From NCBI RefSeq assembly GCF_048403405.1, contig NZ_CP183136.1: a DNA stretch of 64,000 bases; one strand, 5' to 3'. This DNA comes from Escherichia coli (lineage in GTDB: Bacteria > Pseudomonadota > Gammaproteobacteria > Enterobacterales > Enterobacteriaceae). The position numbers and the translations under genes are program-made. Shown here piece by piece: positions 600-61,945 of this stretch (position 1 is the stretch's first letter; each line of letters opens with the position of its first letter). The notes under the pieces are model-generated. The model was not told the origin of the DNA. It saw only the letters and a program-made list of their open reading frames with translations, and made no database searches.

Positions 600-1128
600 G
601 CCCGACTCCGGCGGGGCGGGCTGCTGGCGCAACGGCCAGTCCAGCGAAGCTGTCTGCGCCCTGGTTTCGGGCTGTTGCCACGGTCCGCTGACGCAAAAAC
701 CCGGGTTTGCAGCGACCGGACCGGTCGCGCCGCCCTCTGTCGCGCCGTGGCCTGCGCTCCCGGCATCCCGGCAAAAGGCGCCGGGATGTAAGGCGCAACG
801 CCGTTTCGCGAACCGCGCTTCACGTCGTTGCGGCGGGTCCCTGCCCGTTGTTGTGTCCGGTGCCATTCACCTGTTTAAGCCCCTGTCGCCGGGGGCATAG
901 ACAGCCACAACCTGCCGCACTGACTGTCCAGGGTAAATGAACAGCCCACAAAATTTTTTACCCAAAACCCGGTAAAAACTTTTGCGGTCTGCCCAGGACA
1001 GGTGCGTTTCCGGCCGTGGCAGTGATGCCCCTTGCGGCGAAGGTTCTCAAACAGGTGATGGTGAATACCGGAGGGAACAAAAGGCAGGTCCCCGCAAAAC
1101 GTCAAAACCGCGGCTCCCGAAACTCAAC
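600..1128 (+). repeat. Frpo-like leading-region repeat, copy A
   Basis: About 530 bp of GC-rich sequence near-identical to 58066..58603 and 61376..61908, with internal inverted repeats; ends about 40 bp before the next gene. Confidence 0.7.
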
Positions 1129-1168
1129 AGATGATGGGGGCTGAAAACCAGATAGAGGAGGAAGCAGG

Positions 1169-2796: not shown

Positions 2797-3243
2797 TTAC
2801 TGCTTTTTATCCCAGGTATAAATCCGGTAAACCTCTGATGCGTAGGCAAGACGTCTCTGGTTCTGGCGTTCGGTCTTCCTGAATCCGGCATTGTATGCAC
2901 CAACGGCCTCCCAGGTGACGCCCCATTTTTTAAAGGCTATTGCCAGATAATAAGCACCGGTATAAATGTTCATACAGGGATCTGTTGTCAGATGTTCCGG
3001 CTTAATTCCATAGCGGGCCAGTTCGTTAAAATGCTGGGAATCTACCTGCATCAGTCCGCTGCCATATCCCGTTACCGGATTAATACCGATGGCATTAACC
3101 CGGTAACGGGATTCTTGCCATGATATCGCTCTCAGTAAATCCGGGTCTATTTTGTAATCCCGACCTGCAAGATCAAAGCAATCAGTGGCTTCGCAGATCT
3201 CATTTATAAACATCAGGCAGATTGTTAACATCCATTTTTTCAT
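2797..3243 (-). CDS. Lytic transglycosylase (gene X / orf169)
   Basis: SLT-domain-like sequence ([16 protein letters not shown]...GAYNAG); start [10 protein letters not shown] preceded by gaggtgg RBS; N-terminal signal peptide. Confidence 0.85.
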
Positions 3244-3289
3244 TTTTCCACCTCTGGTGACTTTATCCGTAAATAATTTAACCCACTCC

Positions 3290-3660
3290 ACAAAAAGGCT
3301 CAACAGGTTGGTGGTTCTCACCACCAAAAGCACCACACCCTACGCAAAAACAAGTTTTTGCTGATTTTTCTTTAATATCATAGAGTAGTATATGAAAAAT
3401 TAGTATTGTCTTAACTCTCTTTATGATATTTAAAAAAGCGGTCGTCGACGCAGCTACAGCAACGCGCCGACACCGCTTTGTAGGGGTGGTACTGACTATT
3501 TTTATAAAAAACATTATTTTATATTAGGGGTGCTGCTAGCGGCGCGGTGTGTTTTTTTATAGGATACCGTCTAGGGGCGCTGCTAGCGGTGCGTCCCTGT
3601 TTGCACTATGAATTCTAGTGTTTCGAAATTAACTTTGTTTTATGTTTAAAAAAGGTAATA
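3290..3660 (-). other. oriT: oriT, R100-type; nic on minus strand at about 3334/3335
   Basis: Minus strand reads tttttgcgtagggtgtggtgcttttggtggtgagaaccaccaacctgttgagcc, matching the F/R100 nic region from recall; direct repeats taggggtgctgctagcggcgcg and ctaggggcgctgctagcggtgcg (likely TraM sites) upstream of traM. Confidence 0.8.
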
Positions 3661-3664
3661 TCTA

Positions 3665-4048
3665 ATGGCTAAGGTGAATCTGTATATCAGCAATGATGCT
3701 TATGAAAAAATAAACGCGATTATTGAAAAACGTCGACAGGAAGGGGCAAGAGAAAAAGATGTCAGTTTTTCAGCAACGGCTTCAATGCTTCTTGAACTGG
3801 GTCTTCGTGTATATGAGGCTCAGATGGAGCGCAAAGAGTCTGCATTTAATCAGGCCGAGTTTAATAAACTACTTCTTGAATGCGTTGTAAAAACACAGTC
3901 ATCAGTAGCGAAAATTTTGGGTATTGAGTCTCTCAGTCCTCATGTCTCAGGAAATCCAAAGTTTGAATATGCCAATATGGTTGAAGATATCAGAGAGAAG
4001 GTGTCGGCTGAGATGGAAAGGTTCTTTCCAAAAAATGATGATGAATAA
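3665..4048 (+). CDS. traM: TraM, relaxosome accessory protein
   Basis: 127-aa ORF MAKVNLYISNDAYEKINAIIEKRRQEG..., first gene after oriT. Confidence 0.9.
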   Translation: MAKVNLYISNDAYEKINAIIEKRRQEGAREKDVSFSATASMLLELGLRVYEAQMERKESAFNQAEFNKLLLECVVKTQSSVAKILGIESLSPHVSGNPKFEYANMVEDIREKVSAEMERFFPKNDDE

Positions 4049-4164
4049 AGGGAAATAAATTTTGACTTTGTTCAAATATCAGACTTTTTAATGGTTCAAA
4101 CTGATGACAATAATCGAGAGATAATTAGTATATTAATTACGTGGTTAATGCCACGTTAAAATTT

Positions 4165-4245
4165 GAACTTGAAAATCGCCGATGCAGGGAGCTTGTCCCT
4201 CCCTGCATCGACTGTCCATAGAATCCTTTGTGAGGAGGTTCCTAT
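4165..4245 (-). ncRNA. finP: FinP antisense RNA (approximate bounds)
   Basis: Perfect stem-loop cgatgcagggag-cttgtc-ctccctgcatcg at 4180..4210 in the traJ leader, plus a second hairpin over the traJ RBS and start; bounds inferred. Confidence 0.5.
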
Positions 4246-4938
4246 GTATCCGATGGATCGTATTCAACAAAAACATGCTCGTCAAATCAGATCTGCTGGA
4301 AAATCTGACGGCAGTTATTCAGGATTATCCAAATCCAGCCTGTATCAGGGACGAAACTGGAAAATTTATTTTTTGCAATACGCTGTTTCATGAGTCATTT
4401 CTTACACATAGATCAAAGTGCTGAAAAATGGCTTCTGTCGCAGAGAGATTTTTGTGAATTGATCTCTGTCACAGAGATGGAAGCATACAGGAATGAGCAT
4501 ACGCATCTTAATCTTGTAGAGGATGTTTTTATTCAGAACAGATTCTGGACAATATCTGTCCAGTCATTTCTTAATGGACACAGAAATATTATTACTGGTG
4601 GCAATTTTATGATGCTGCTCATGTTCGTCATAAAGACAGTTATAATCAAAAAACGATTGTCAGTGATGATATCAGAAATATAATCAGAAGAATGAGTGAT
4701 GATTCTTCTGTATCATCATATGTAAATGATGTCTTTTACTTATATAGCACCGGAATCAGTCATAATGCTATAGCAAGAATATTAAATATATCCATCTCCA
4801 CATCAAAGATAACACGCATCTCTGATATGCGACTACTTCTCTGTTTCTAATAAAGATGAGTTAATTATCTTACTCTACAATAAAAAGTTTATTTATTATT
4901 TATACGAGAAGGCTATGTGTATCATAAATACGCGTTAA
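4244..4938 (+). pseudogene. traJ: TraJ transfer activator, multiply frameshifted
   Basis: ORFs 4163..4393, 4182..4424 and 4390..4683 in three frames carry consecutive TraJ-like segments (MYPMDRIQQKHARQI / DLLENLTAVIQDYPNPACIRDETGKF / DQSAEKWLLSQRDFCELISVTEMEAYRNEH). Confidence 0.7.
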
Positions 4939-5030
4939 TAAGGTGTTGATAAAATATAGACTTTCCGTCTATTTACCTTTTCTGATTATTCTGTAAACAT
5001 AAGTGGTAACCAGAAGATAAACAGCGGGAG

Positions 5031-5441
5031 GTGTTATTGAAAAGATTTGGTACACGTTCTGCAACAGGTAAGATGGTAAAACTAAAATTACCTGTAGATG
5101 TGGAAAGTCTATTAATTGAGGCAAGTAACAGAAGCGGAAGAAGTCGATCGTTTGAGGCAGTAATAAGACTTAAAGATCATCTTCACCGCTATCCAAAGTT
5201 TAACAGGGCAGGGAATATCTATGGTAAGTCGCTGGTTAAGTATCTGACAATGCGTCTGGATGATGAAACTAACCAGCTACTTACTTGCAGCCAAAAATCG
5301 TAGTGGATGGTGTAAAACAGATGAGGCATGCAGACAGAGTTATTGATCATTTGATCAAGTTATCCTGATTTTTATAACTCGGAGAAATATTCAGGGAGGC
5401 AGATAGAAGAGGAACGATATCAACATTTAAATACACTCTAG
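5031..5441 (+). pseudogene. traY: TraY (ribbon-helix-helix), apparent frameshift at the 3' end
   Basis: GTG-start ORF MLLKRFGTRSATGKMVKLKLPVDVESLLIEASNRSGRSRSFEAVIRL stops at 5303 while TraY-like coding continues in another frame. Confidence 0.6.
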
Positions 5442-9669: not shown

Positions 9670-9680
9670 GGAACCCTTCG

Positions 9681-13587: not shown

Positions 13588-13970
13588 GTTCAACGCAGAA
13601 ACCCGCCGACGTCATGGCAGAACGACGCAGCCACTGGTGGTGGACGGTGCCGGGATGCCTGGCAATGGTGTTACTGAACGCAGCCGTCAGTTACGGCATT
13701 GTCAGACTGAACGCACCGGTGACTGTCGCCTTCAACATGAAACAGACCGTGGATGCGTTTTTTGACAGAGCCAGTCAGAAACAACTGTCAGAAGCGCAGT
13801 CAAAAGCCCTTTCAGCGCGTTTTAACACGGCACTGGAAGCCAGCCTGCAGGCGTGGCAGCAGAAACACCACGCGGTCATTCTGGTGTCGCCTGCTGTGGT
13901 ACAGGGGGCACCGGATATCACCCGGGAAATCCAGCAGGATATTGCCCGGCGAATGAGGGCGGAACCATGA
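13584..13970 (+). CDS. trbI: TrbI
   Basis: 128-aa ORF overlapping traC stop. Confidence 0.8.
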   Translation: MSSTQKPADVMAERRSHWWWTVPGCLAMVLLNAAVSYGIVRLNAPVTVAFNMKQTVDAFFDRASQKQLSEAQSKALSARFNTALEASLQAWQQKHHAVILVSPAVVQGAPDITREIQQDIARRMRAEP

Positions 13971-15588: not shown

Positions 15589-15593
15589 GGTGA

Positions 15594-16235: not shown

Positions 16236-18040
16236 AACGTATTTTACCTCTGATACTGGCTCTGGTTGCCGGCATGGCACAGGCTGACAGCAACAGTGAT
16301 TACCGGGCCGGCTCTGATTTTGCTCACCAGATCAAAGGGCAGGGAAGCAGCAGTATTCAGGGCTTTAAGCCACAGGAGAGTATCCCCGGCTATAACGCGA
16401 ATCCGGACGAGACAAAATATTACGGTGGCGTGACTGCCGGCGGGGATGGCGGCCTGAAAAATGACGGCACCACGGAATGGGCGACCGGTGAAACCGGAAA
16501 AACCATCACAGAGTCATTCATGAACAAGCCGAAAGACATTCTTTCACCGGATGCACCGTTTATCCAGACCGGCAGGGATGTGGTGAACCGGGCTGACAGC
16601 ATTGTGGGAAACACCGGGCAGCAGTGCAGTGCGCAGGAGATTAGCCGGAGTGAATACACGAATTACACCTGTGAGAGGGATTTACAGGTGGAGCAGTACT
16701 GCACACGAACTGCCCGTATGGAGCTGCAGGGGAGTACCACATGGGAAACCCGGACGCTGGAGTATGAAATGAGTCAGCTACCTGCACGTGAAGTGAATGG
16801 TCAGTATGTTGTCTCCATTACCTCTCCCGTTACCGGTGAAATTGTCGATGCGCATTACAGCTGGAGTCGTACTTACCTGCAGAAGAGTGTACCTATGACA
16901 ATTACAGTACTGGGAACCCCACTGAGCTGGAATGCCAAATACTCAGCAGATGCCTCATTTACACCAGTACAGAAAACACTGACTGCCGGTGTTGCTTTTA
17001 CGTCATCTCACCCCGTCCGGGTCGGGAATACAAAATTCAAACGTCATACGGCAATGAAGCTGCGTCTGGTTGTCAGGGTAAAAAAAGCCTCGTACACCCC
17101 GTATGTTGTCTGGTCTGAAAGCTGCCCGTTCAGCAAGGAGCTGGGGAAACTGACAAAAACAGAATGTACGGAGGCTGGCGGGAACAGGACGCTGGTGAAA
17201 GACGGTCAGTCATACAGCATGTACCAGAGCTGCTGGGCATACCGGGACACGTATGTCACGCAGTCAGCAGACAAGGGAACCTGTCAGACCTACACCGACA
17301 ATCCTGCCTGTACCCTGGTGTCACACCAGTGTGCCTTTTACTCCGAAGAAGGTGCCTGTCTGCATGAATATGCCACGTACTCCTGTGAGTCAAAAACATC
17401 CGGGAAAGTGATGGTCTGTGGGGGAGACGTCTTCTGTCTCGATGGCGAATGCGATAAGGCTCAGAGCGGGCAGAGTAATGATTTTGCCGAAGCCGTTTCT
17501 CAGCTGGCGGCACTGGCCGCAGCAGGTAAGGATGTTGCGGCGCTGAACGGGGTGGATGTCCGTGCTTTCACCGGTCAGGCGAAATTTTGTAAGAAGGCTG
17601 CAGCCGGATACAGCAACTGCTGTAAGGACAGCGGCTGGGGACAGGATATCGGGCTGGCCAAATGCAGCAGTGATGAAAAGGCCCTGGCTAAAGCAAAATC
17701 AAACAAACTGACCGTCAGCGTCGGGGAGTTCTGTTCGAAGAAAGTGCTGGGTGTCTGTCTGGAGAAAAAACGCAGCTACTGTCAGTTTGATTCGAAGCTG
17801 GCGCAGATAGTCCAGCAGCAGGGGCGCAACGGTCAGTTGCGTATCAGTTTTGGTAGTGCGAAGCATCCTGACTGTCGGGGGATTACGGTTGATGAGCTGC
17901 AGAAAATTCAGTTCAACAGACTGGATTTCACTAACTTCTACGAAGACCTGATGAATAACCAGAAAATCCCGGACAGTGGCGTTCTGACGCAGAAAGTGAA
18001 AGAGCAGATTGCTGACCAGCTGAAACAGGCAGGACAGTAA
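16232..18040 (+). CDS. traN: TraN, mating-pair stabilisation protein
   Basis: 602 aa, cysteine-rich, signal peptide. Confidence 0.9.
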   Translation: MKRILPLILALVAGMAQADSNSDYRAGSDFAHQIKGQGSSSIQGFKPQESIPGYNANPDETKYYGGVTAGGDGGLKNDGTTEWATGETGKTITESFMNKPKDILSPDAPFIQTGRDVVNRADSIVGNTGQQCSAQEISRSEYTNYTCERDLQVEQYCTRTARMELQGSTTWETRTLEYEMSQLPAREVNGQYVVSITSPVTGEIVDAHYSWSRTYLQKSVPMTITVLGTPLSWNAKYSADASFTPVQKTLTAGVAFTSSHPVRVGNTKFKRHTAMKLRLVVRVKKASYTPYVVWSESCPFSKELGKLTKTECTEAGGNRTLVKDGQSYSMYQSCWAYRDTYVTQSADKGTCQTYTDNPACTLVSHQCAFYSEEGACLHEYATYSCESKTSGKVMVCGGDVFCLDGECDKAQSGQSNDFAEAVSQLAALAAAGKDVAALNGVDVRAFTGQAKFCKKAAAGYSNCCKDSGWGQDIGLAKCSSDEKALAKAKSNKLTVSVGEFCSKKVLGVCLEKKRSYCQFDSKLAQIVQQQGRNGQLRISFGSAKHPDCRGITVDELQKIQFNRLDFTNFYEDLMNNQKIPDSGVLTQKVKEQIADQLKQAGQ

Positions 18041-18063
18041 GGTATGGGAAATAACCGGGGGAA

Positions 18064-18324
18064 ATGATGAAAGTCATATTCACGTCGAACCGTTTTATTG
18101 ATTTTCTTATCCGGCTTTTGATTACAGCGATTGTCATTTCTCTGGTAATTATCTGGTCGTGGGATACGGTAAAAGAAACCACGGCAGACGGGATGCTTGC
18201 CGCTGCTTTCGTTATCCTTTACTCCGGTGTGCTCCTGTTTATTCTGTATTTTTGTTTTTCTGCCCTGACTGACCTGCAGAAACCTGATGAAAGAAAAAGT
18301 GATGAAAGGAATGAAGATGAATAA
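18064..18324 (+). CDS. trbE: TrbE
   Basis: 86-aa membrane protein after traN. Confidence 0.75.
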   Translation: MMKVIFTSNRFIDFLIRLLITAIVISLVIIWSWDTVKETTADGMLAAAFVILYSGVLLFILYFCFSALTDLQKPDERKSDERNEDE

Positions 18325-19060
18325 AGCATTACTGCCACTGTTACTCTGCTGCTTTATTTTTCCGGCGTCAGGAAAAGATGCAGGCTGGCAGTGGTATAAC
18401 GAGAAAATAAATCCGAAGGAAAAAGAAAATAAACCTGTACCTGCAGCCCCCCGTCAGGAACCGGATATTATGCAGAAACTGGCCGCACTGCAGACGGCAA
18501 CAAAGCGGGCGCTGTACGAAGCCATTCTGTATCCCGGCGTGGATAATTTTGTGAAATATTTCCGGCTGCAAAATTACTGGACTCAGCAGGCCGGGCTTTT
18601 CACCATGAGCGCCAGAAAGGCCATGCTGGCACATCCTGAACTGGACTATAACCTGCAGTACAGCCATTACAACGGCACGGTACGGAACCAGCTGGCAGCA
18701 GACCAGGCGCAGCAGCGACAGGCCATTGCGAAACTGGCTGAACACTACGGCATCATGTTTTTTTACCGGGGGCAGGACCCCATCGACGGGCAGCTGGCGC
18801 AGGTCATTAATGGCTTCCGGGATACCTATGGTCTGAGTGTTATTCCCGTTTCCGTGGATGGCGTGATTAATCCGCTGTTGCCGGATTCCCGGACTGACCA
18901 GGGGCAGGCGCAGCGCCTCGGCGTGAAATATTTCCCGGCCATGATGCTGGTTGACCCGAAACAGGGTAGTGTTCGTCCGTTATCATACGGTTTTATTTCG
19001 CAGGACGACCTGGCAAAACAGTTCCTGAATGTCTCTGAGGATTTTAAACCGAATTTTTAA
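18317..19060 (+). CDS. traF: TraF, thioredoxin-fold pilus assembly protein
   Basis: MNKALLPLLLCCFIFPASG signal peptide; internal start of ORF 18287..19060. Confidence 0.85.
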   Translation: MNKALLPLLLCCFIFPASGKDAGWQWYNEKINPKEKENKPVPAAPRQEPDIMQKLAALQTATKRALYEAILYPGVDNFVKYFRLQNYWTQQAGLFTMSARKAMLAHPELDYNLQYSHYNGTVRNQLAADQAQQRQAIAKLAEHYGIMFFYRGQDPIDGQLAQVINGFRDTYGLSVIPVSVDGVINPLLPDSRTDQGQAQRLGVKYFPAMMLVDPKQGSVRPLSYGFISQDDLAKQFLNVSEDFKPNF

Positions 19061-19073
19061 CCAAAGGATATAT

Positions 19074-19415
19074 ATGCATACAGGGGATTTGTGTTTTTTT
19101 ACAGGTGCCAGCCTGTTTATCGTGGGGGTTGTTGGTTATTTCTTTACAGGACTAAATAATAAAGGAGTTTATCTACTGAGCTCGTTTGTCTTCTTTGTAG
19201 TAAATGTCATAAGTGTATGTATGCTGCCAGATAATTTCTTGTTTCTTTGTGGTGCGGTTATGAATCAGTGTGCCGTACCGGTTGTTTCAATGGCAGTCAG
19301 CACCATGCCGATTATCACGAAGTTTGACAGTTTCAGAAGGATGTTTATTTGTATTATGTTGTCAGCCATATGGTCTGGAGTGATGTGGTTTTTTATTATT
19401 TCATTAGTGAAATGA
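19074..19415 (+). CDS. trbA: TrbA-like membrane protein
   Basis: Hydrophobic ORF after traF, RBS aaagga before ATG at 19074. Confidence 0.55.
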   Translation: MHTGDLCFFTGASLFIVGVVGYFFTGLNNKGVYLLSSFVFFVVNVISVCMLPDNFLFLCGAVMNQCAVPVVSMAVSTMPIITKFDSFRRMFICIMLSAIWSGVMWFFIISLVK

Positions 19416-19731
19416 CTGGTGCTAATTTGTCATAAATGCCAAATCCAATAGTGAGGTTGATTACCACAGACCAGAGGATAAACCAGACTGCTATCCAGTG
19501 ACTTCTGAATAAATCACAAAAATAAACATAGATGATTAGAAATAGCCATATCACAACAGCGATAATTGCTATAAATAACAGTATCGTCACAAATAAATCA
19601 GCAAAGGTTTTAATGGGGAGAGTGTGCAATAATGAATACACCAGTAAAGCAAAAGCCGCATTACCTGATAATGACTCTCTTATGATGTTTCTCACTATTT
19701 CCAGTTTTTCTTTAAAAGATCGCTTTTCCAT
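19396..19731 (-). CDS. artA: ArtA-like membrane protein, antisense to the tra operon
   Basis: 111-aa hydrophobic ORF on the opposite strand between trbA and traQ, as in F. Confidence 0.5.
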   Translation of the reverse strand: MEKRSFKEKLEIVRNIIRESLSGNAAFALLVYSLLHTLPIKTFADLFVTILLFIAIIAVVIWLFLIIYVYFCDLFRSHWIAVWFILWSVVINLTIGFGIYDKLAPVISLMK

Positions 19732-19811
19732 TTGTACCTCTGACTAATATCACACAAACGCGAATATTACAGACATGAATACTCTCATGTAAATAATAAC
19801 CGGAGTTTAAC

Positions 19812-20096
19812 ATGATAAGTAAACGCAGATTCTCTTTACCCCGGCTTGATATTACGGGAATGTGGGTATTTTCCCTGGGCGTCTGGTTTCATATCGTCGC
19901 CCGTCTTGTTCACAGCAAACCCTGGATGGCTTTTTTTCTGGCGGAGCTGATTGCGGCCATCCTTGTGCTGTTCGGCGCATACCAGGTGCTGGATGCATGG
20001 ATTGCCCGTGTCAGCCGGGAAGAGCGTGAGGCACTGGAAGCCAGGCAACAGGCCATGATGGCAGAGCAGCAGGAGGGCGGACATGTCTCTCACTAA
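19812..20096 (+). CDS. traQ: TraQ, pilin chaperone
   Basis: 94-aa ORF MISKRRFSLPRLDITGMWVF... Confidence 0.85.
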   Translation: MISKRRFSLPRLDITGMWVFSLGVWFHIVARLVHSKPWMAFFLAELIAAILVLFGAYQVLDAWIARVSREEREALEARQQAMMAEQQEGGHVSH

Positions 20097-20637
20097 ATTA
20101 CTGCCGGTTATTCTGTTGATGATGGCCACAGGTGTGCAGGCCTCCACCCGGGATGAAATTGAACGACTCTGGCATCCGCAGGGTATGGCTGCGCAGCCTG
20201 CACAACCGGCAGCAGACACGCCAGCCAGGACAGACAAGACAGAAAAGCCGGCTCCCCGCTGGTTCCGCCTCAGCAACGGCAGGCAGGTTAACCTGGCCGA
20301 CTGGAAGGTGGTGCTGTTTATGCAGGGGCATTGCCCTTACTGTCACCAGTTTGACCCGGTACTGAAGCAGCTGGCACAGCAGTACGGCTTTTCCGTTTTT
20401 CCCTACACTCTGGATGGTCAGGGGGATATGGCCTTTCCGGAAGCATTACCGGTGCCACCGGACGTGATGCAGACCTTCTTCCCGAATATCCCGGTGGCCA
20501 CACCGACCACCTTCCTGGTCAACGTCAACACGCTTGAGGCATTACCGCTTTTACAGGGGGCAACGGATGCCGCCGGTTTTATGGCGCGGATGGATACCGT
20601 TCTGCAGATGTACGGAGGGAAAAAAGGTGCGAAATAA
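20083..20637 (+). CDS. trbB: TrbB, thioredoxin-like disulfide isomerase
   Basis: CPYC motif, signal peptide, 184 aa. Confidence 0.85.
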   Translation: MSLTKLLPVILLMMATGVQASTRDEIERLWHPQGMAAQPAQPAADTPARTDKTEKPAPRWFRLSNGRQVNLADWKVVLFMQGHCPYCHQFDPVLKQLAQQYGFSVFPYTLDGQGDMAFPEALPVPPDVMQTFFPNIPVATPTTFLVNVNTLEALPLLQGATDAAGFMARMDTVLQMYGGKKGAK

Positions 20638-20941
20638 GCAGGTGGTGTTACTCATTGCCGGAATATCCGGCATCGCGACGGGAATAATCGTCAGCCTGAA
20701 TATTCCCTTTATCCGTCAGGGGCTTTTTTATCCCGCCAGTCCTGTAGAAATAGTCGTTTCGCTGTGTCTTACCTTTTCTGTTTCTGTTGTGTTTTTTGTG
20801 GGGGCAATTGTGGGATGGATTTCGGTGTCTGAAATATATTACAGCCGCATGACCGGTCTGAATGAATCATCAGTAATATCAGAGGAAACTTATAATGACA
20901 AAAAACAAAAAGAATCAGGAATTCAAAATCAGAAAAATTAG
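20627..20941 (+). CDS. trbJ: TrbJ
   Basis: GTG start after ggaggg RBS; small membrane protein. Confidence 0.6.
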   Translation: MRNKQVVLLIAGISGIATGIIVSLNIPFIRQGLFYPASPVEIVVSLCLTFSVSVVFFVGAIVGWISVSEIYYSRMTGLNESSVISEETYNDKKQKESGIQNQKN

Positions 20942-21287
20942 ACGGAATATTGAGTATAGTTTCAGAGGTTCTGACAGATATTTTTATTTGTTTATTGTTT
21001 TCCTTGTTGCCGGAATTGTTTTATGGGCTGTTATGCACGTTATTTTCGATGTCTGTATTGATTCGTGGATGGCCGACCCGAAATTACTTAATTTCCAGTA
21101 TATGTGGAATGTTCTGATGAAAGTCATTCCGTTTACGTTATGGGCGCTGGCAGCAAGGTTTCTTGTTACATTTTTTCTGTCCCCAATGTGCGAATTAATA
21201 TTCGGAAATATCATGATATTCCTGCTGAAACGCCGTATGCGCCGGGAGAACACATTAAGGGAGGGCAAGAATGATGCCACGCATTAA
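20895..21287 (+). CDS. trbF: TrbF
   Basis: 130-aa membrane protein before traH. Confidence 0.65.
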   Translation: MTKNKKNQEFKIRKIRRNIEYSFRGSDRYFYLFIVFLVAGIVLWAVMHVIFDVCIDSWMADPKLLNFQYMWNVLMKVIPFTLWALAARFLVTFFLSPMCELIFGNIMIFLLKRRMRRENTLREGKNDATH

Positions 21288-22660
21288 ACCTCTTCTGGTT
21301 CTTTGTGCTGCTTTACTGACGGTCACACCCGCAGCGTCAGCGGATGTGAACAGCGACATGAATCAGTTCTTTAACAAGCTGGGCTTCGCCTCCAATACCA
21401 CCCAGCCGGGCGTCTGGCAGGGGCAGGCCGCCGGCTATGCTTACGGTGGCTCCCTGTATGCCCGTACTCAGGTTAAAAATGTTCATCTGATTTCCATGAC
21501 GCTGCCGGATATCAATGCCGGATGTGGCGGCATCGACGCCTATCTCGGCTCGTTCAGCTTTATTAATAGCGAGCAGTTGCAGCGTTTTGTTAAGCAGATT
21601 ATGAGCAATGCTGCCGGTTACTTCTTTGACCTTGCCCTGCAGACAACGGTGCCGGAAATCAAAACCGCAAAAGACTTCCTGCAGAAAATGGCAAGCGACA
21701 TTAACAGTATGAACCTCAGTTCCTGCCAGGCGGCACAGGGGATTATCGGCGGGCTTTTCCCCCGGACGCAGGTGTCCCAGCAGAAAGTCTGTCAGGACAT
21801 TGCCGGTGAGAGCAATATTTTTGCTGACTGGGCTGCTTCCCGGCAGGGATGTACCGTTGGCGGGAAATCTCGACAGCGTCAGGGATAAAGCCAGCGACAA
21901 GGATAAGGAGCGGGTGACCGAAAAACATCAACATCATGTGGAATGCGCTTTCCAAAAACAGAATGTTTGACGGCAACAAAGAGCTGAAAGAGTTTGTGAT
22001 GACGCTGACCGGCTCACTGGTGTTTGGTCCCAGACGGCGAAATCACACCGCTATCGGCGCAGAACCACTGACCGCTCATATTATCCGGGCCATGATGGAA
22101 GGCGGTACAGCAAAAATTTATCACTGCAACGATTCTGACAAATGCCTGAAAGTGGTGGCAGACACACCGGTGACCATCAGCCCGGGATAATGCACTGAAG
22201 TCTCAGATTACTAAACTTCTGGCCAGCATTCAGAACAAGGCTGTCAGTGACACGCCTCTGGATGACAAGGAAAAAGGCTTTATTTCCAGTACCACCATCC
22301 CCGTCTTCAAATACCTGGTTGACCCGCAGATGCTCGGTGTTTCCAACAGTATGATTTACCAGCTGACGGACTATATCGGTTACGACATCCTGCTGCAGTA
22401 CATTCAGGAGCTGATACAGCAGGCCCGGGCGATGGTGGCCACCGGGAAATTATCGACGAAGCAGTTATCGAACAGTATTAACTGGACAATATGAATGATG
22501 CCACCGCGGCAGATTGCGGCGTTTCCAGTCACAGGTACAGGTGCAGCAGGATGCGCTGCTGGTCGTCGACCGTCAGATGAGCTACATGCGTCAGCAGCTT
22601 TCCGCCCGCATGCTCAGTCGTTACCAGAACAACTATCACTTCGGAGGGAGCACGCTGTGA
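21271..22660 (+). pseudogene. traH: TraH, frameshifted
   Basis: N-terminal 205 aa in ORF 21271..21888; later TraH-like segments (MWNALSKNRMFDGNKELKEF..., NDSDKCLKVVADTPVTIS) lie in other frames; total span is not a multiple of 3. Confidence 0.7.
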
Positions 22661-25348
22661 ATGAAGTTTATGTGATTGCCGGTGGTGAATGGTTGCGGAA
22701 TAACCTGAACGCCATTGCCGCCTTTATGGGAACCAGGACGTGGGATTCCATTGAAAAAATTGCTCTCACCCTGTCTGTTGTTGCGGTGGCCTTTATGTGG
22801 GTACAGCGGCACAACGTGATGGATTTGCTGGGCTGGGCGGCGGTGTTTGTGCTTATCAGCCTGCTGGTTAATATCCGTACGTCGGTGCAGATTATTGATA
22901 ACAGTGACCTGGTCAAAGTCCATCGGGTGGATAATGTGCCGGTCGGACTGGCGATGCCACTTTCACTGACGACCCGTATCGGGCATGCAATGGTGGCCAG
23001 TTACGAGATGATCTACACGCAACCGGACAGTTTCACCTACAGCAAAACGGGGATGCTGTTTGGCGCAGAACCTGGTATGCAAAAAGCACCGACTTTTTGT
23101 CCCGCAATCCGGAAATCGCCAATCTTTTTCAGGATTATGTGCAGAACTGTGTGATGGGGGATATTTACCTGAACCACAAATACACGCTGGAGGAGCTGAT
23201 GGCCTCCGCTGATCCCTACACGCTGATTTTTTCCCGCCCCAGTCCGCTGCGGGGCGTTTATGACAGCAATAATAATTTCGTGACCTGTAAGGACGCGTCG
23301 GTTTCGCTGAAAGACAAGCTGAATCTGGACACACAGACGTGGCGGCAAAACCTGGCATTATTATGTGCAGCAGATATTTGGCGGTCAGCCCGGATCCGGA
23401 CCTGTTATTCAGTGCAACTGGTTGAGTGACAGTTACCGTTATTTCTACGGCTCCAGCCAGTCTGCCAGTCAGATCATGCGCCAGAACGTCACCATGAATG
23501 CGCTGAAGGAGGGTATCACCAGTTATGCAGCCCGTAACGGTGACTACCGCCAGCCTGGTGAATCTGGCCACCACGTCATCGATGGAGAAGCAACGTCTGG
23601 CACATGTCTCCATTGGTCATGTGGCTGATGCGAAACACTGCCGATGGCGCAGACCATTCTGGTGGGCATTACCATCGGTATTTTCCCGCTCCTGGTACTG
23701 GCGGCTGTCTTCAACAAACTGACGCTGTCTGTTCTGAGAGGCTATGTGTTTGCCCTGATGTGGTTGCAGTCATGGCCAATGTTGTATGCCATTCTGAACA
23801 GCGCCATGACATTTTATGCGAAGCAGAATGGTGCACCGGTGGTGCTCTCGGAAATTTCACAGATACAGCTGAAATACTCCGATCTGGCTTCCACTGCCGG
23901 GTATCTTTCCATGATGATACCCGCCATTATCCTGGATGATGGTCAGAGGCCTTGGCGCCGGTTTTTCCAGCGTGTACAGCCATTTCGCTTCCTCTGCTAT
24001 CAGCCCGACTGCCAGTGCGGCAGGCAGTGTGGTTGACGGTAATTACTCCTACGGCAACATGCAGACGGAAAACGTGAACGGCTTCAGCTGGAGCACCAAC
24101 AGCACCACGTCGTTTGGTCAGATGATGTACCAGACCGGCAGTGGCGCAACTGCCACACAGACCCGTGACGGTAATATGGTGATGGATGCAAGCGGAGCGA
24201 TGTCCCGTTTACCGGTTGGTATCAATGCAACGCGTCAGATTGCAGCGGCACAACAGGAAATGGCCCGGGAGGCGTCGAACAGAGCAGAAAGCGCCCTGCA
24301 TGGTTTCAGCAGCAGTATTGCCAGTGCCTGGAACACGCTCAGTCAGTTTGGTTCTAACCGGGGGAGCAGTGATTCTGTCACCGGTGGCGCTGACAGCACC
24401 ATGAGTGCACAGGACTCCATGATGGCCAGCCGTATGCGCAGTGCAGTGGAAAGCTATGCGAAGGCGCATAATATCAGTAATGAGCAGGCGACTCAGGAAC
24501 TGGCATCAACAGGTTCTAGGTTCTCGTCTGGCGGAATGTATGCAGATGCTCATGCTGAATGGGGGATTAAACCTGAAATTCTTGGTGTTGGTGGTGGGGT
24601 TGGTGTCAGAGGCGGGTTTAAGGGAAGTCTTGGATGCGAACGGATGATGACTCACATTCTGCAAGTAGTGGCAGCAGAGCTACCCATGATGCTCGCCATG
24701 ATATTGACGCTAAAGCCAGTACAGGACTTTAAAGAAGCCAGCGATTACTTTACCAGTCGCAAGGTCAGTGAGTCCGGCAGCCATACTGACAATAATGCTG
24801 ACTCCCGGGTGGACCAGTTGTCTGCAGCCCTGAACTCAGCGAAACAGAGTTACGACCAATACACGACGAATATGACCCGCAGCCATGAATATGCGGAAAT
24901 GGCCTCCCGTACTGAAAGCATGAGCGGGCAGATGAGTGAAGACCTGTCGCAACAGTTTGCACAGTATGTGATGAAACGCGCACCGCAGGATGCAGAAGCT
25001 ATTCTGACAAATACCAGTTCGCCGGAGATTGCAGAACGTCGTCGGGCGATGGCATGGTCTTTTGTGCAGGAACAGGTACAGCCTGGTGTTGATAATGCCT
25101 GGCGGGAATCCCGTGGCGATATTGGTAAAGGAATGGAGAGCGTACCTTCGGGTGGTGGCAGTCAGGATATTATTGCTGACCATCAGGGACATCAGGCCAT
25201 TATTGAGCAAAGAACGCAGAACAGTAATATCCGTAATGATGTAAAACATCAGGTTGATAATATGGTCACAGAATATCGTGGCAATATCGGAGATACTCAG
25301 AACAGTATCCGTGGCGAGGAAAATATTGTAAGACGGGCAGTATTCTGA
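22657..25348 (+). pseudogene. traG: TraG, mating-pair stabilisation / entry exclusion, multiply frameshifted
   Basis: Starts at GTG (VNEVYVIAGGEWLRNNLNAIAAF); successive segments in ORFs 22495..23154, 23097..23429, 23365..23628, 23644..24036 and 23936..25348 in different frames. Confidence 0.7.
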
Positions 25349-25502
25349 ACTGCAAAATCATCATAAAACAGGAGGCATTATCTACAGAATAATAAATATA
25401 ATGAAGAGCAAGAAACGTCAGAAGATTAATACCTGACGCCATCAGAAGAGGCTGTGAAAACAGATGGTGGATGATAAGAAGGATACGACTGAAGGGGCCA
25501 TT

Positions 25503-27032: not shown

Positions 27033-29367
27033 ATGAGTTTTAACGCAAAGGATATGACCCAGGGCGGTCAGATTGCGTCCATGCGTATCCGCATGTTCAG
27101 CCAGATCGCCAATATCATGCTTTACTGCCTGTTTATTTTTTTCTGGATACTCGTTGGTCTGGTTTTATGGGTAAAAATAAGCTGGCAGACGTTTGTGAAC
27201 GGCTGTATTTACTGGTGGTGTACCACGCTGGAAGGCATGCGGGATTTAATCAAGTCCCAGCCGGTATATGAGATCCAGTATTACGGCAAAACCTTCCGGA
27301 TGAACGCTGCTCAGGTACTGCATGATAAATATATGATTTGGTGCGGAGAGCAGCTATGGTCCGCATTCGTTCTGGCCACAGTTGTGGCACTGGTTATTTG
27401 CCTGATTACCTTCTTTGTTGTCTCCTGGATTCTGGGGCGTCAGGGTAAACAACAGAGCGAAAATGAAGTCACAGGTGGTCGTCAGCTGACAGACAATCCG
27501 AAAGACGTTGCCCGGATGCTGAAAAAAGACGGCAAGGACTCCGATATCCGGATTGGCGACCTGCCGATTATCCGGGATTCCGAAATCCAGAACTTCTGTC
27601 TGCACGGCACGGTCGGGGCCGGTAAGTCGGAGGTTATCCGTCGTCTGGCCAACTACGCCCGTCAGCGCGGTGATATGGTGGTGATTTATGACCGTTCAGG
27701 GGAATTTGTTAAAAGTTACTATGATCCCTCCATCGATAAAATCCTGAATCCGCTGGATGCCCGCTGTGCCGCATGGGATTTGTGGAAGGAGTGCCTGACA
27801 CAGCCGGATTTTGATAATACCGCAAATACTCTGATCCCGATGGGTACAAAAGAGGACCCGTTCTGGCAGGGTTCAGGACGTACCATTTTTGCGGAAGCGG
27901 CGTACCTGATGCGTAATGACCCCAACCGCAGCTACAGCAAACTGGTGGACACACTGCTTTCCATCAAAATCGAAAAACTGCGTACCTTCCTGCGTAATTC
28001 ACCGGCGGCCAACCTGGTGGAAGAGAAAATCGAGAAAACGGCGATTTCCATCCGTGCTGTGCTGACCAACTACGTGAAAGCCATCCGTTACCTGCAGGGG
28101 ATTGAGCATAACGGTGAGCCCTTCACCATCCGTGACTGGATGCGTGGTGTCCGGGAAGATCAGAAAAACGGCTGGCTGTTTATCTCATCGAACGCCGACA
28201 CCCATGCCTCCCTGAAGCCGGTGATCTCCATGTGGCTGTCCATTGCCATTCGTGGTCTGCTGGCAATGGGAGAAAACCGTAAACGTCGTGTGTGGTTTTT
28301 CTGTGACGAGTTACCCACGTTACACAAACTGCCGGATCTGGTGGAGATCCTGCCGGAAGCCCGTAAGTTCGGTGGCTGTTATGTGTTTGGTATCCAGTCC
28401 TATGCCCAGCTGGAAGATATCTACGGTGAGAAAGCGGCGGCCACGCTGTTTGACGTCATGAACACCCGTGCTTTTTTCCGTTCTCCCGAGCCATAAGATT
28501 GCAGAGTTCGCTGCCGGTGAGATTGGTGAGAAAGAGCACCTGAAAGCCAGCGAGCAGTATTCCTACGGTGCTGATCCGGTACGTGACGGGGTATCGACCG
28601 GTAAGGATATGGAGCGTCAGACGCTGGTCAGTTATTCCGACATTCAGTCTCTGCCGGATCTGACCTGCTATGTCACTCTGCCCGGACCGTATCCGGCAGT
28701 AAAACTCTCTCTGAAATATCAGGCACGACCGAAGGTCGCTCCGGAGTTTATTCCGCGTGACATCAACCCGGAAATGGAGAACCGTCTGAGTGCCGTACTT
28801 GCCGCAAGGGAAGCAGAAGGTCGTCAGATGGCCAGCCTCTTCGAACCGGAGGTTGCCTCCGGAGAAGATGTGACTCAGGCTGAACAGCCACAACAGCCAC
28901 AACAGCCACAACAGCCACAACAGCCACAACAGTCACAACAGCCACAACAGCCACAACAGCCACAACAGCCACAACAGCCACAACAGCCACAACAGCCACA
29001 ACAGCCACAACAGCCACAACAGCCACAACAGCCACAACAGCCACAACAGCCACAACAGCCACAACAGCCACAACAGCCACAACAGCCAGTGTCTCCTGCC
29101 ATCAACGATAAGAAGTCAGATGCAGGTGTGAGTGTTCCGGCAGGGGGGATCGAGCAGGAGCTGAAAATGAAACCGGAAGAAGAGATGGAACAGCAACTGC
29201 CACCCGGGATCAGTGAATCCGGTGAAGTGGTGGATATGGCCGCTTATGAGGCATGGCAACAGGAAAATCATCCGGACACCCAGCAGCAGATGCAGCGTCG
29301 TGAAGAGGTGAACATTAATGTGCACCGGGAGCGCGGGGAGGATGTTGAGCCGGGAGATGATTTCTGA
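27033..29367 (+). pseudogene. traD: TraD coupling protein, one frameshift near 28480
   Basis: ORF 27033..28496 (Walker A GTVGAGKS) and ORF 28468..29367 (continuing ...[23 protein letters not shown]) are adjacent TraD segments in different frames; contains the QQP repeat. Confidence 0.75.
28885..29086 (+). repeat. 9-bp tandem repeat (cagccacaa), about 22 units, encoding the TraD C-terminal QQP tract
   Basis: Directly visible periodicity, with one variant unit cagtcacaa. Confidence 0.9.
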
Positions 29368-32300
29368 TGTTGAGTTTCAGCGTTGGTTAAATCGGCAGGC
29401 AGTGCCGGAAACTATTACACCGACAAGGATAATTACTATGTGCTGGGCAGCATGGGAGAACGCTGGGCTGGTCAGGGGGGCTGAACAGCTTGGGACTGCA
29501 GGGCAGCGTCGATAAGGATGTTTTTACCCGTCTTCTGGAGGGCAGGCTGCCGGACGGAGCGGATTTAAGCCGCATGCAGGATGGCAGTAATAAGCATCGT
29601 CCCGGCTACGACCTGACCTTCTCCGCCCCCAAAAGTGTCTCCATGATGGCCATGCTCGGGGGCGATAAACGCCTGATTGATGCACATAACCAGGCCGTGG
29701 ATTTTGCTGTCCGTCAGGTGGAGGCGCTGGCTTCCACACGGGTGATGACGGACGGACAGTCAGAAACGGTGCTGACCGGTAATCTGGTGATGGCACTGTT
29801 TAACCATGACACCAGTCGCGATCAGGACCCACAGTTACACACGCATGTAGTGGTGGCTAATGTCACGCAGCATAACGGCGAGTGGAAGACACTGAGCAGT
29901 GACAAAGTGGGGAAAACCGGATTTATCCGAGAACGTGCTACGCGAACCGGATTGCGTTCGGGAAGATCTATCAGAGTGAGTTACTGTCAGCGCAGGTTGA
30001 GGCGCTGGGTTATGAAACCGAAGTGGTCGGTAAGCACGGTATGTGGGAGATGCCGGGCGTACCGGTGGAGGCCTTTTCCAGTCGTTCACAGGCTATCAGG
30101 GAGGCCGTCGGTGAAGACGCCTCGCTGAAATCCCGGGATGTGGCGGCACTGGATACGCGAAAATCCAAACAGCACGTCGATCCGGAAATCAGAATGGCTG
30201 AATGGATGCAGACGCTGAAGGAAACCGGGTTCGACATCCGGGCATATCGTGACGCGGCGGATCAGCGTGCGGAGACCCGCACGCAGGCGCCCGGGGCTGT
30301 TTCACAGGAGGGGCCGGATGTGCAGCAGGCGGTGACACAGGCCATTGCCGGATTAAGTGAACGAAAAGTGCAGTTTACGTACACGGACGTGCTGGCCAGA
30401 ACGGTCGGTATACTGCCGCCGGAAAATGGTGTGATTGAACGGGCACGCGCCGGTATCGATGAGGCCATCAGTCGTGAGCAGCTTATCCCCCTCGACCGTG
30501 AGAAGGGGCTGTTCACATCAGGAATTCATGTGCTCGATGAGCTGTCCGTCCGGGCACTCAGTCGTGACATCATGAAACAGAACCGGGTGACCGTACATCC
30601 GGAGAAAAGTGTCCCCCGGACGGCTGGTTACAGCGATGCGGTCAGTGTTCTGGCACAGGACCGTCCGTCGCTGGCCATTGTGTCCGGGCAGGGCGGTGCA
30701 GCCGGGCAGCGTGAGCGGGTGGCTGAACTGGTCATGATGGCCCGGGAGCAGGGGCGGGAGGTGCAGATTATCGCTGCTGACCGTCGCTCGCAGATGAACC
30801 TGAAGCAGGATGAACGGCTGTCCGGTGAGCTGATAACCGGACGTCGTCAGCTGCAGGAGGGCATGGTCTTCACGCCGGGCAGTACTGTTATCGTCGACCA
30901 GGGCGAAAAACTCTCCCTGAAAGAGACGTTAACCCTGCTGGACGGTGCCGCACGTCATAACGTACAGGTCCTGATAACCGACAGCGGGCAGCGAACCGGT
31001 ACAGGCAGTGCGCTGATGGCCATGAAGGATGCCGGGGTGAACACGTATCGCTGGCAGGGCGGAGAACAGCGACCGGCAACCATCATCAGTGAACCGGACC
31101 GGAATGTCCGCTATGACCGGCTGGCCGGAGATTTTGCGGCCAGCGTGAAAGCCGGAGAAGAGAGCGTGGCACAGGTCAGCGGGGTACGGGAACAGGCCAT
31201 ACTGACACAGGCCATTCGCAGTGAGCTGAAAACACAGGGCGTGCTCGGACACCCGGAGGTGACCATGACCGCCCTGTCACCGGTCTGGCTGGACAGCCGG
31301 AGCCGTTATCTGCGGGATATGTACCGACCGGGGATGGTGATGGAGCAGTGGAACCCGGAGACACGCAGTCATGACCGCTATGTTATCGACCGGGTGACGG
31401 CGCAGAGTCACAGCCTGACCCTGCGGGATGCGCAGGGCGAAACGCAGGTGGTGCGTATTTCCTCCCTGGACAGCAGCTGGTCGCTGTTCCGGCCGGAAAA
31501 AATGCCGGTGGCAGACGGCGAGCGACTGAGGGTGACAGGGAAAATTCCCGGACTCCGCGTCTCCGGCGGTGACCGCCTGCAGGTGGCATCCGTCAGTGAA
31601 GATGCGATGACGGTTGTTGTGCCGGGGCGGGCTGAACCGGCCACCCTGCCTGTGGCTGATTCACCGTTCACGGCACTGAAGCTGGAGAACGGCTGGGTGG
31701 AAACGCCCGGGCATTCCGTCAGTGACAGTGCGACGGTGTTTGCCTCCGTCACACAGATGGCAATGGACAACGCCACCCTGAACGGTCTGGCCCGCAGCGG
31801 TCGTGATGTCCGGCTGTATTCCTCACTGGATGAAACCCGTACTGCGGAAAAACTTGCCCGCCATCCCTCCTTTACGGTGGTTTCTGAGCAGATAAAGGCG
31901 CGGGCCGGTGAGACATCGCTGGAAACCGCTATCAGTCTGCAGAAAACCGGGCTGCACACGCCGGCACAGCAGGCCATTCATCTGGCCCTTCCTGTGCTGG
32001 AAAGTAAAAACCTGGCCTTCAGCATGGTGGACCTGCTGACAGAGGCGAAGTCGTTTGCTGCAGAAGGAACCGGTTTTACTGAACTGGGAGGGGAAATCAA
32101 TGCGCAGATAAAACGCGGTGACTTACTGTATGTGGATGTGGCAAAAGGCTATGGCACAGGCCTGCTGGTTTCTCGTGCGTCGTATGAGGCAGAAAAAAGT
32201 ATTCTTCGCCATATTCTCGAAGGTAAGGAGGCGGTCACGCCGCTGATGGAGAGAGTACCCGGCGAACTCATGGAGACGTTAACGTCGGGACAGCGTGCCG

Positions 32301-48277: not shown

Positions 48278-48286
48278 AAATGTAGG

Positions 48287-49343
48287 GGCTTTGTTGAATA
48301 AATCGAACTTTTGCTGAGTTGAAGGATCAGATCACGCATCTTCCCGACAACGCAGACCGTTCCGTGGCAAAGCAAAAGTTCAAAATAACCAACTGGCCCA
48401 CCTACAATAAAGCCCTCATCAACCGTGGCTCCATAACTTTCTGGCTGGATGATGAAGCTATTCAGGCCTGGTATGAGTCAGCAACACCTTCTTCACGAGG
48501 CAGACCTCAGCGCTATTCTGACCTTGCCATCACGACTGTGCTGGTCATTAAACGCGTATTCAGGCTGACCCTGCGCGCTGCGCAGGGCTTTATTGATTCC
48601 ATTTTTTCTCTGATGAACGTTCCGCTACGCTGCCCGGATTACAGCTGTGTCAGCAGGCGGGCAAAGTCGGTTAATATCAGTTTCAAAACGCCCACCCGGG
48701 GTGAAATCGCACACCTGGTAATTGATTCCACCGGGCTGAAGGTCTTCGGTGAAGGCGAGTGGAAAGTCAAAAAGCATGGTCAGGAACGCCGCCGTATCTG
48801 GCGTAAGCTGCATCTGGCAGTTGACAGCAACACACATGAAATCATCTGTGCAGACCTGTCGCTGAACAATGTGACGGACTCAGAAGCCTTCCCGGGTCTT
48901 ATCCGGCAGACTCACAGAAAAATCAGGGCAGCATCGGCAGACGGCGCTTACGACACCCGGCTCTGTCACGATGAACTGCGGCGTAAGAAAATCAGCGCGC
49001 TTATCCCACCCCGAAAAGGCGCGGGTTACTGGCCCGGTGAATATGCAGACCGTAACCGTGCTGTTGCGAATCAGCGAATGACCGGGAGTAATGCGCGGTG
49101 GAAATGGACAACAGATTACAACCGTCGCTCGATAGCGGAAACGGCGATGTACCGGGTAAAACAGCTGTTCGGGGGTTCACTGACGCTGCGTGACTACGAT
49201 GGTCAGGTTGCGGAGGCTATGGCCCTGGTACGAGCGCTGAACAAAATGACGAAAGCAGGTATGCCTGAAAGCGTGCGTATTGCCTGAAAACACAACCCGC
49301 TACGGGGGAGACTTACCCGAAATCTGATTTATTCAACAAAGCC
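48287..49343 (+). mobile_element. IS903 (IS5 family), 1057 bp, 18-bp terminal inverted repeats, 9-bp target duplication AAATGTAGG
   Basis: IR ggctttgttgaataaatc at 48287 and its reverse complement ending 49343; identical aaatgtagg at 48278..48286 and 49344..49352. Confidence 0.9.
48319..49287 (+). CDS. IS903 transposase
   Basis: 322-aa ORF filling the element; IS903/IS102 transposase from recall. Confidence 0.9.
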   Translation: MKDQITHLPDNADRSVAKQKFKITNWPTYNKALINRGSITFWLDDEAIQAWYESATPSSRGRPQRYSDLAITTVLVIKRVFRLTLRAAQGFIDSIFSLMNVPLRCPDYSCVSRRAKSVNISFKTPTRGEIAHLVIDSTGLKVFGEGEWKVKKHGQERRRIWRKLHLAVDSNTHEIICADLSLNNVTDSEAFPGLIRQTHRKIRAASADGAYDTRLCHDELRRKKISALIPPRKGAGYWPGEYADRNRAVANQRMTGSNARWKWTTDYNRRSIAETAMYRVKQLFGGSLTLRDYDGQVAEAMALVRALNKMTKAGMPESVRIA

Positions 49344-49410
49344 AAATGTAGGTAATAAGCAGGGTCTTTGTATTTCTGGAAATTATCTCAAACGGCAGAA
49401 TATTGATCAT
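49344..49410 (-). pseudogene. mcbB: mcbB 5' fragment (first 22 codons, MINILPFEIISRNTKTLLITYI)
   Basis: Minus-strand ATG at 49410 with RBS; coding continues to the IS903 junction. Confidence 0.75.
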
Positions 49411-57870: not shown

Positions 57871-58065
57871 TACAGGGCAGGCGGTGGAGGCCGCCTGTCA
57901 GCCCGCGCGAAAACCCCTGGCAGGCTGGCGCCTGCCGGAAGGGAAGCGGGCCACGCTGGCGCGTCGCCCGTTACCCTTCCCGTTTGTGATGTGTCCGGAA
58001 TGTTTTTTCCTGATGTTATGTTTCTGTGGTTACTGTTCTTCTTCTTCCTCTTCTTTCCGTTCCTC

Positions 58066-58603
58066 TCCTGTTTATGCCTTTTCCGGGCGTCCCCCTGGCG
58101 GGGCGGGCTGTCGTGAACGGAGCCAGCGGAGCTGTCTCCGCCCTGGCGGGCTTCCATCCCTGACGCAAAACCCCGGGTTTGCAGCGACCGGAACGGTCGC
58201 GCCACCCCTGTCGCGCCGTGGCCTGCGCTCCCGGCATCCCGGCAAAAAGACGCCGGGATGTAAGGAGCAACGCCGTTTCGCAAACCGCGCTTCACGTCGT
58301 TGCAGCGGGTCCCTGCTCATTGCCTGCCGGGTGCCACACACCCGTATGAGTCCCTGTCGCCGGGGGCTGATACAGCCACAACCTGCCGCACTGACTGTCC
58401 AGGGTAAATGAACAGCCCACAAAATTTTTTACCCAAAACCCGGTAAAAAATTTTGCGTTCTGCCCAGGACAGGTGCGTCAGGCCGTGGCAGTGATGCCCC
58501 TTGCGGCGAAGGTTCTCAAACGGGTGAAGTTCATACCACAGGGAATACAGCAGCAGGTTCCCGCGAAACGTCAAAACCGCGGCTCCCGAAACTCAACGGG
58601 TGA
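58066..58603 (+). repeat. Frpo-like leading-region repeat, copy B
   Basis: Near-identical to copy C at 61376..61908 and similar to copy A. Confidence 0.8.
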
Positions 58604-58837
58604 TGTTCTTTAAAAATCAGGATTTATTTCAGGCTCCGGCAATACGCATTTATGTGTTCTGTCAGTCATCCGGCTGGCAGGTAATGAAAACGCAGGAACA
58701 GAAGGAGGAAAACACCGGAAAGCGTCAGATGCAGATATGAAAAAAAGCAGGTCAGGGACCTGCTTAATCCACGCCGTAAGAATTGTGCGACCAATTTTGA
58801 CGGCATTGTTAACCAATTTGTCATAAGGAATCCATTT

Positions 58838-61270: not shown

Positions 61271-61327
61271 CTGCTACTGCTACTGCTACTGCTACTGCTA
61301 CTGCTACTGCTACTGCTACTGCTACTG
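61271..61327 (+). repeat. Hexanucleotide microsatellite (CTGCTA), about 9.5 units
   Basis: Directly visible perfect period-6 repeat. Confidence 0.95.
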
Positions 61328-61375
61328 TTCTTCTTTTTTCTGCTGCTCTGATTACTGTCTGTTTTGTTGTTCTCC

Positions 61376-61908
61376 TGCTTATGCCTTTTCCGGGCGTCCC
61401 CCTGGCGGGGCGGGCTGTCGTGAACGGAGCCAGCGGAGCTGTCTCCGCCCTGGCGGGCTTCCATCCCTGACGCAAAAACCCGGGTTTGCAGCGACCGGAA
61501 CGGTCGCGCCACCCTTGTCGCGCCGTGGCCTGCGCTCCCGGCATCCCGGCAAAAGACGCCGGGATGTAAGGAGCAACGCCGTTTCGCAAACCGCGCTTCA
61601 CGTCGTTGCGGCGGGTCCCTGCCCGTTGTTCTGTCCGGTGCCATTCACCTGTTTAAGCCCCTGTCGCCGGGGGCATAGACAGCCACAACCTGCCGCACTG
61701 ACTGTCCAGGGTAAATGAACAGCCCACAAAATTTTTTACCCAAAACCCGGTAAAAAATTTTGCGTTCTGCCCAGGACAGGTGCGTCAGGCCGTGGCAGTG
61801 ATGCCCCATGCGGCGAAGGTTCTCAAACAGGTGATGGTGAATACCGGAGGGAACAAAAGGCAGGTCCCCGCAAAACGTCAAAACCGCGGCTCCCGAAACT
61901 CAACAGAT
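61376..61908 (+). repeat. Frpo-like leading-region repeat, copy C, upstream of ssb
   Basis: Near-identical to copy B; ends about 40 bp before the ssb start. Confidence 0.8.
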
Positions 61909-61945
61909 GATGGGGGCTGAAAACATCAACAGAAGGAGACACATC

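Follow-up and report, generated by a model that had tools for sequence, protein, structure and literature searches.

The window analysed here, a 64-kb stretch (64,000 nucleotides) of Escherichia coli DNA from contig NZ_CP183136.1 (assembly GCF_048403405.1), comes from an IncFII-type plasmid, about 70 kb in size, with a microcin B17 operon. Its transfer region includes traD, the gene for the F-type type IV coupling protein, in the order traT-traD-traI that is also found in R100. As written, traD is divided between two plus-strand open reading frames (ORFs), 27033..28496 (487 aa) and 28468..29367, the second of which contains a tandem array and ends in ...EDVEPGDDF, the TraD C-terminus. When base 28484 is removed, both ORFs join into one 777-aa protein. 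This repaired TraD scores 834.7 bits on TIGR02759 (TraD_Ftype, the equivalog for F-type TraD; cut-off 521.35) and 1667.6 bits on NF010254 (cut-off 1221), and its Pfam domains are TraD_N at residues 32-128 and TrwB_AAD_bind at residues 172-561. GTVGAGKS and WFFCDE are both seen in the translation, and the Walker A motif of a TrwB-type nucleotide-binding domain is present. The uninterrupted reading frame expected of an F-type TraD is lacking as written, owing to the extra T at 28484. The window also encodes a putative F-type TraM, the relaxosome protein with which the TraD tail docks. The coordinates of these features are collected in Table 1.

Table 1. Features of traD, its repeat array and its docking partner, by position in the 64-kb window
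Feature	Positions	Strand	Basis or remark
traM, relaxosome protein docked by the TraD tail, 127 aa	3665..4048	+	Translation
traD, F-type type IV coupling protein gene	27033..29367	+	Split as written by a +1 insertion
Single inserted T, frameshifting traD at about codon 484, within the nucleotide-binding domain	28484	+	11 relatives aligned
Degenerate unit GAACAGCCA (Glu-Gln-Pro)	28882..28890	+	5' edge of the array
22 in-frame units of CAACAGCCA, (Gln-Gln-Pro)n	28891..29088	+	Tandem Repeats Finder and unit-by-unit reading
T in unit 5, CAACAGTCA (Gln-Gln-Ser), the sole impure unit	28933	+	Unit-by-unit reading
Distal C-terminal tail of TraD, 92 aa, ending EDVEPGDDF; last 8 residues at 29341..29364	29089..29364	+	Termini compared with F and R100

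Tandem Repeats Finder (TRF) places a 9-bp tandem array at 28883..29088, with 22.9 copies, 98% matches, 0% indels and a score of 405, the highest of any tandem repeat in the window. When the array is read unit by unit, 21 of the 22 units are identical and unit 5 is the exception. Together with the Gln-Pro that precedes them, the 22 units form a Q/P tract of 68 residues (618-685 of repaired TraD), located in the C-terminal extension past the nucleotide-binding domain and 92 residues from the C-terminus. It is impossible for a perfectly phased array of 206 bp to arise by chance, and the tract in TraD is confirmed as a 9-bp tandem repeat that has been described previously. The earlier note had assigned the gene to TraD and had located about 22 units at 28885..29086 in its C-terminal region. 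These coordinates and this unit number are correct by both TRF and the in-frame reading, the assignment agrees with the TIGR02759 score and the location proves to be the C-terminal extension, and the role that the note gave to the C-terminus in contacting TraM is borne out by the literature.

The impure unit was searched separately. The segment 28830..28962, which includes the Gln-Gln-Ser unit, has no 100% match in PLSDB, where the best matches are 99.2% identical and are without T28933. This unit, which has no PLSDB counterpart, may have arisen by a private mutation or may be an error. Three overlapping ORFs on the minus strand (28763..29080, 28875..29105 and 28456..28929; 105, 76 and 157 aa, respectively, with poly-VAV and poly-CCG translations) were rejected as genes and are regarded as stop-free read-through of the repeat. 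The sole other tandem repeat in the window, (CTGCTA)9.5 at 61271..61327 in the leading region, is longer by 18 bp (3 units) than in CP090301. The leading region also holds three copies of a sequence of ~540 bp that are 88-94% alike (610..1148, 58064..58605 and 61371..61912), which may represent the single-strand initiation/promoter repeats found in F-like leading regions.

The terminus EDVEPGDDF is the same in the TraD proteins of F and R100. It is acidic, contains a glycine and ends in an aromatic residue, which is the composition that a review gives for the TraM-binding tip, and it would be such a tip here. According to the literature, the C-terminal domain of TraD is unstructured, TraM is contacted by the last ~8 residues, part of a conserved stretch of 38 at the end of the protein, and the binding of TraM by the tip of the tail affects the specificity and efficiency of transfer. 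In F-like TraD, the C-terminal extension is unstructured and the QQP motif forms a variable region within it, as described by Lang et al. (2011) (Mol Microbiol 82:1071, Fig. 8; PMC3245843). The tract in the window lies in the same protein, has the same Gln-Gln-Pro unit and occupies the same position between the nucleotide-binding and TraM interaction domains; it differs in unit number only, with 68 residues against 5 in F and 23 in R1 as given in that paper.

A homologous array is known from the Salmonella virulence plasmid pSLT, in which the 9-bp traD (PSLT104) variable-number tandem repeat (VNTR) was sized by PCR at 5-19 repeats across 220 isolates (Hiley et al., 2019; PLoS One; PMC6459517). 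One of the primers of that study matches the flank of the pSLT array located here. The two arrays share the traD site, the 9-bp period and the in-frame Gln-Gln-Pro unit (10.8 copies in LT2), but the unit is CAACAGCCG in pSLT and CAACAGCCA in the window, the flanks have diverged (pSLT TraD is 87% identical to the repaired TraD of the window) and the 22 units of the window lie above the published pSLT range. The R100 (NC_002134) and related IncFII traD alleles have the CCA-type unit and the upstream flank in common with the window, at 98-99% identity. R100 itself has 9 units, and the distal tail of the window (VSPAIN..., HPDTQQQ) is F/p109-like rather than R100-like. The combination of an R100-like upstream flank with an F/p109-like distal tail makes the traD of the window a mosaic, possibly with a recombination joint at or close to the repeat. 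The window tract has every sequence-level feature of the QQP motif (Lang et al., 2011) and of the 9-bp traD VNTR (Hiley et al., 2019), and the allele is not new.

The mosaic character extends to the tra region as a whole. Between 9200 and 21500 the window is near-identical to p109 (NZ_CP023372), from which it diverges from ~22.5 kb, and traD-traI is closest to R100-type plasmids (99%). The best identity to the window in the three collections searched is 99.0% for traD and 95.6% for traH-traG, and the segment 22000-46000 reaches 96.4-97.8% among the matches listed. Elsewhere on the plasmid, a 1057-bp insertion relative to CP090301 is found at 48287..49343 and is bounded by a 9-bp duplication (48278..48286 and 49344..49352). 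It codes for a transposase of the IS5 family (356 bits on NF033579) and, by its size and its 9-bp duplication, looks IS903-like. The insertion breaks mcbB of the microcin B17 operon near its 5' end, which would probably abolish microcin production.

Unit number was compared across plasmids by using a 768-bp query across the tract and by sampling evenly spaced rows of the two resulting BLAST rankings, one comprising 3212 matches among complete E. coli genomes and the other 3983 matches in PLSDB. In all 116 full-length sampled rows, the span differs from that of the window by an exact multiple of 9. Unit numbers derived from span, which may err by one in F-like lineages that have an extra 9 bp just upstream, range from 1 to 23 in this sample (n=116), with a median of 8 and with 2 of the 116 at 22 or more; LR890263 has 23 units by span. 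Individual alleles extend from a single unit in F (protein QPQQP), through the 9 of R100 and about 10 in pSLT of LT2 (10.8 TRF copies of AACAGCCGC), to 22 in NZ_CP089446, where TraD is an intact protein of 777 aa, 29 in NZ_CP173587 and 32 in NZ_JBXRYY010000002, where the ORF is likewise intact. With 22 units, the window therefore ranks among about the highest 2-3% of F-like plasmids, inside the natural range of 1-32, and is no outlier. A protein search with the C-terminal 289 aa of TraD returned only matches to fragments of <500 aa, none of them with a long tract. The 32-unit plasmid (L013; NZ_JBXRYY010000002.1, 3001..5424) has an intact ORF of 807 aa, which RefSeq divides into two pseudogene pieces labelled 'incomplete'; automatic annotation seems to fail on long QQP tracts.

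The clearest evidence for rapid change comes from four Korean bloodstream plasmids. L011, L010, L009 and L012 have 0 differences over 7857 + 6279 flanking bases (14.1 kb), yet they carry 14, 15, 16 and 18 units, respectively. Unit number changes fast and always in frame, and the reading frame is never broken because each unit consists of three codons. Part of the length variation in database records could be assembly noise. PCR sizing of the pSLT array, which gave 5-19 repeats, shows that real length variation exists independently of assembly. The array occupies a homologous position in the alignment of F, R100, an O178 plasmid and pSLT. Arrays are nearly pure at the DNA level, each unit keeping one set of three codons, and the proline codon is CCG in the pSLT array and CCA in the R100-type arrays. 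Such near-pure arrays, with codons that depend on lineage, fit a repeat that slippage or unequal exchange has expanded repeatedly, lineage by lineage. The array shares with phase-variable contingency loci the trait of slippage mutation in an intragenic, coding tandem repeat, but its 9-bp unit is a multiple of three and can change the length of the protein only, with no on/off switch; given the multiples of 9 in the sample, an on/off contingency locus was rejected. The earlier note had called the tract expanded, longer than that of F and prone to slippage. The comparison with F is borne out, both by the single full unit of F and by the report of Lang et al. (2011), and the slippage-prone character is upheld by the four Korean plasmids and the PCR sizes from pSLT. 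The word 'expanded' stands in relation to F, R1 and R100 and falls in relation to the natural range, which includes an intact 22-unit allele as well as alleles of 29 and 32 units.

Mechanistically, the CAACAGCCA array would gain or lose whole units by replication slippage or unequal recombination. The encoded (Gln-Gln-Pro)n, with proline at each third residue, would form an unstructured spacer in the C-terminal extension of TraD. Proline at each third residue is incompatible with a regular helix or sheet. AlphaFold, run on an alignment of 21 sequences, predicts coil over residues 607-720 with a pLDDT of 25-33, in a whole model that is poor (mean pLDDT 44.8). When solved structures were searched, the C-terminal region matched Q/P-rich proteins by composition only, and no structure of a TraD tail of at least 20 residues was found. 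The spacer would lie between the membrane-anchored hexameric ATPase domain, which ends at ~residue 577, and the acidic tip that docks into the TraM tetramers bound at oriT. Unit number would then set the length of the tether, and the 68 residues of this plasmid against the 5 of F may correspond to up to ~20 nm of extra contour length, while a change in length would leave the ATPase domain and the TraM-binding tip untouched. Most likely, the tract acts as a passive spacer of variable length by which the TraM-binding tip is tethered to the ATPase ring.

As written, TraD would be cut short at residue 487, still within the nucleotide-binding domain, with loss of the whole C-terminal extension. The responsible base, T28484 (context cgttcTcccga), was first seen by comparison with NZ_CP173587 and is private to the window, being missing from 11/11 aligned relatives; around it, the window has no private substitution relative to those 11. 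A programmed frameshift or translational restart at this position was rejected, since each of the 11 relatives, without the T, encodes a single continuous protein. Similar lesions surround traD. Relative to p109, the window has 2 mismatches and 0 indels from 9200 to 21500, and then 13 single-base insertions and 0 mismatches in the 650 bp from 21871 to 22525. Multiple alignments assign window-private single-base insertions to traH (13), traG (21) and the first 600 bp of traI (8), in the stretches 21871..25480 (traH and traG) and 29385..29995 (the 5' end of traI), and many of these insertions fall outside homopolymers. In the 4-8 relatives aligned, which are up to ~10% diverged, no such insertions are found except for two that are in frame (9 bases in pSLT traH and 3 bases in p109 traG). 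The same alignments show no single-base deletions in traH or the traI 5' end of the window; in traG, 14 private deleted bases were scored and are attributed to the point at which the window segment was cut. Only one private insertion is found in the 2.3 kb of traD. As written, the reading frame is lost in traH, traG, traS, traD and traI. Directly upstream, traC to trbF encode proteins with 99.5-100% identity to those of p109, and no comparable insertion pattern is seen in the window at 41-64 kb.

Insertions alone, often outside homopolymers and in sequence free of substitutions, point to poor consensus quality over ~21.8-30 kb rather than natural decay. From the alignments, the frameshift at 28484 is very probably a sequence error and not a property of the plasmid. 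A frameshift 'at about 28480' had been reported before; the lesion is real as an extra T at 28484 in the record, and its reading as biology most likely falls. In the competing account, traD is a true pseudogene in a decaying transfer region, with traH, traG, traS, traD and traI really frameshifted and the tract drifting without selection. Five tra genes out of frame as written would agree with this account, as would the IS5-family element in mcbB, by which some gene loss elsewhere on the plasmid is real. Decay is nevertheless improbable, because every lesion adds a single base and none removes one, because natural decay gives no pattern of the kind seen in the 650 bp compared with p109, because traC through trbF remain almost identical at the protein level to those of a conjugative relative, and because 6 relatives spanning ~10% divergence have no frame-breaking private indels.

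The same local defects bear on the unit number. The frameshift lies within a run of window-private insertions, which points to poor local sequence quality, so that the count of 22 cannot be certified from the record alone; the caution on its reliability in the earlier note is strengthened by the many insertion-type errors in the stretch. The array could thus be present with a different true unit number, collapsed or expanded in assembly or consensus and wrong by at least one unit. This is suggested by its place inside an ~8-kb stretch with dozens of private single-base insertions, by its length of 206 bp, which exceeds that of common short reads, by the Gln-Gln-Ser unit that PLSDB lacks and by two database TraD fragments (P0022 and P0024) that stop at the left edge of the tract (...VTQAEQ and ...VTQA), consistent with contig breaks. 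The perfect 9-bp phase with 0% indels is unlike the noisy neighbouring genes, however, traD itself has just the one private insertion, and 22 units occur naturally, in the intact gene of NZ_CP089446, as do 23 by span in LR890263. An error in the count is accordingly somewhat unlikely, although less so than decay of the gene. A further question is whether length itself has been selected. Longer tethers might alter the capture of the relaxosome through TraM avidity, the mobilisation of foreign plasmids or the sensitivity to male-specific RNA phages, with lineages selecting particular lengths. Differences between F and R1 in the uptake of phage R17 have been tied to the heterogeneity of the TraD C-terminus, including the QQP motif, and phage-driven diversification has been proposed, with an effect of tract length raised as a possibility only (Lang et al., 2011; PMC3245843). 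Weak binding of the isolated tail to TraM, with a reliance on avidity and flexibility, has been described (Wong, 2011), pSLT genotypes have distinct ranges of repeat number (Hiley et al., 2019; PMC6459517), and the CCA and CCG third codons of the R100-type and pSLT arrays suggest independent expansions. Against adaptive tuning, F is efficient with a single unit, near-identical plasmids differ by 1-4 units as neutral slippage predicts, and no measurement of an effect of tract length on TraD function was found in the literature. Tuning of this kind is considered unlikely, and the still bolder proposal, in which the QQP array is a fast-evolving 'tether-length dial' whose long alleles, such as that of 22 units, are selected and are not products of neutral slippage, is a little less likely again. 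If such a dial existed, unit number would set the reach of the six TraM-binding tips of each TraD hexamer, and relaxosome capture, cross-mobilisation or the entry of male-specific RNA phages would be tuned by it.

The preferred reading, which is very probably correct, is that the tract is the known in-frame 9-bp VNTR of F-like traD and encodes a disordered spacer of variable length, with the frameshift as a probable error. In practice, the chief lesson is that sequence quality in the traH-traI part of the record calls for caution: insertion-type errors in ~8 kb, from traH to the start of traI, would mislabel a conjugative plasmid as transfer-defective. The traD repeat is also a known trouble spot for short-read assembly and automatic annotation. 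For the biology of F-like plasmids there is little that is new, as the repeat is a documented polymorphism of this group; it serves as a fast-evolving marker that separates otherwise identical plasmids.
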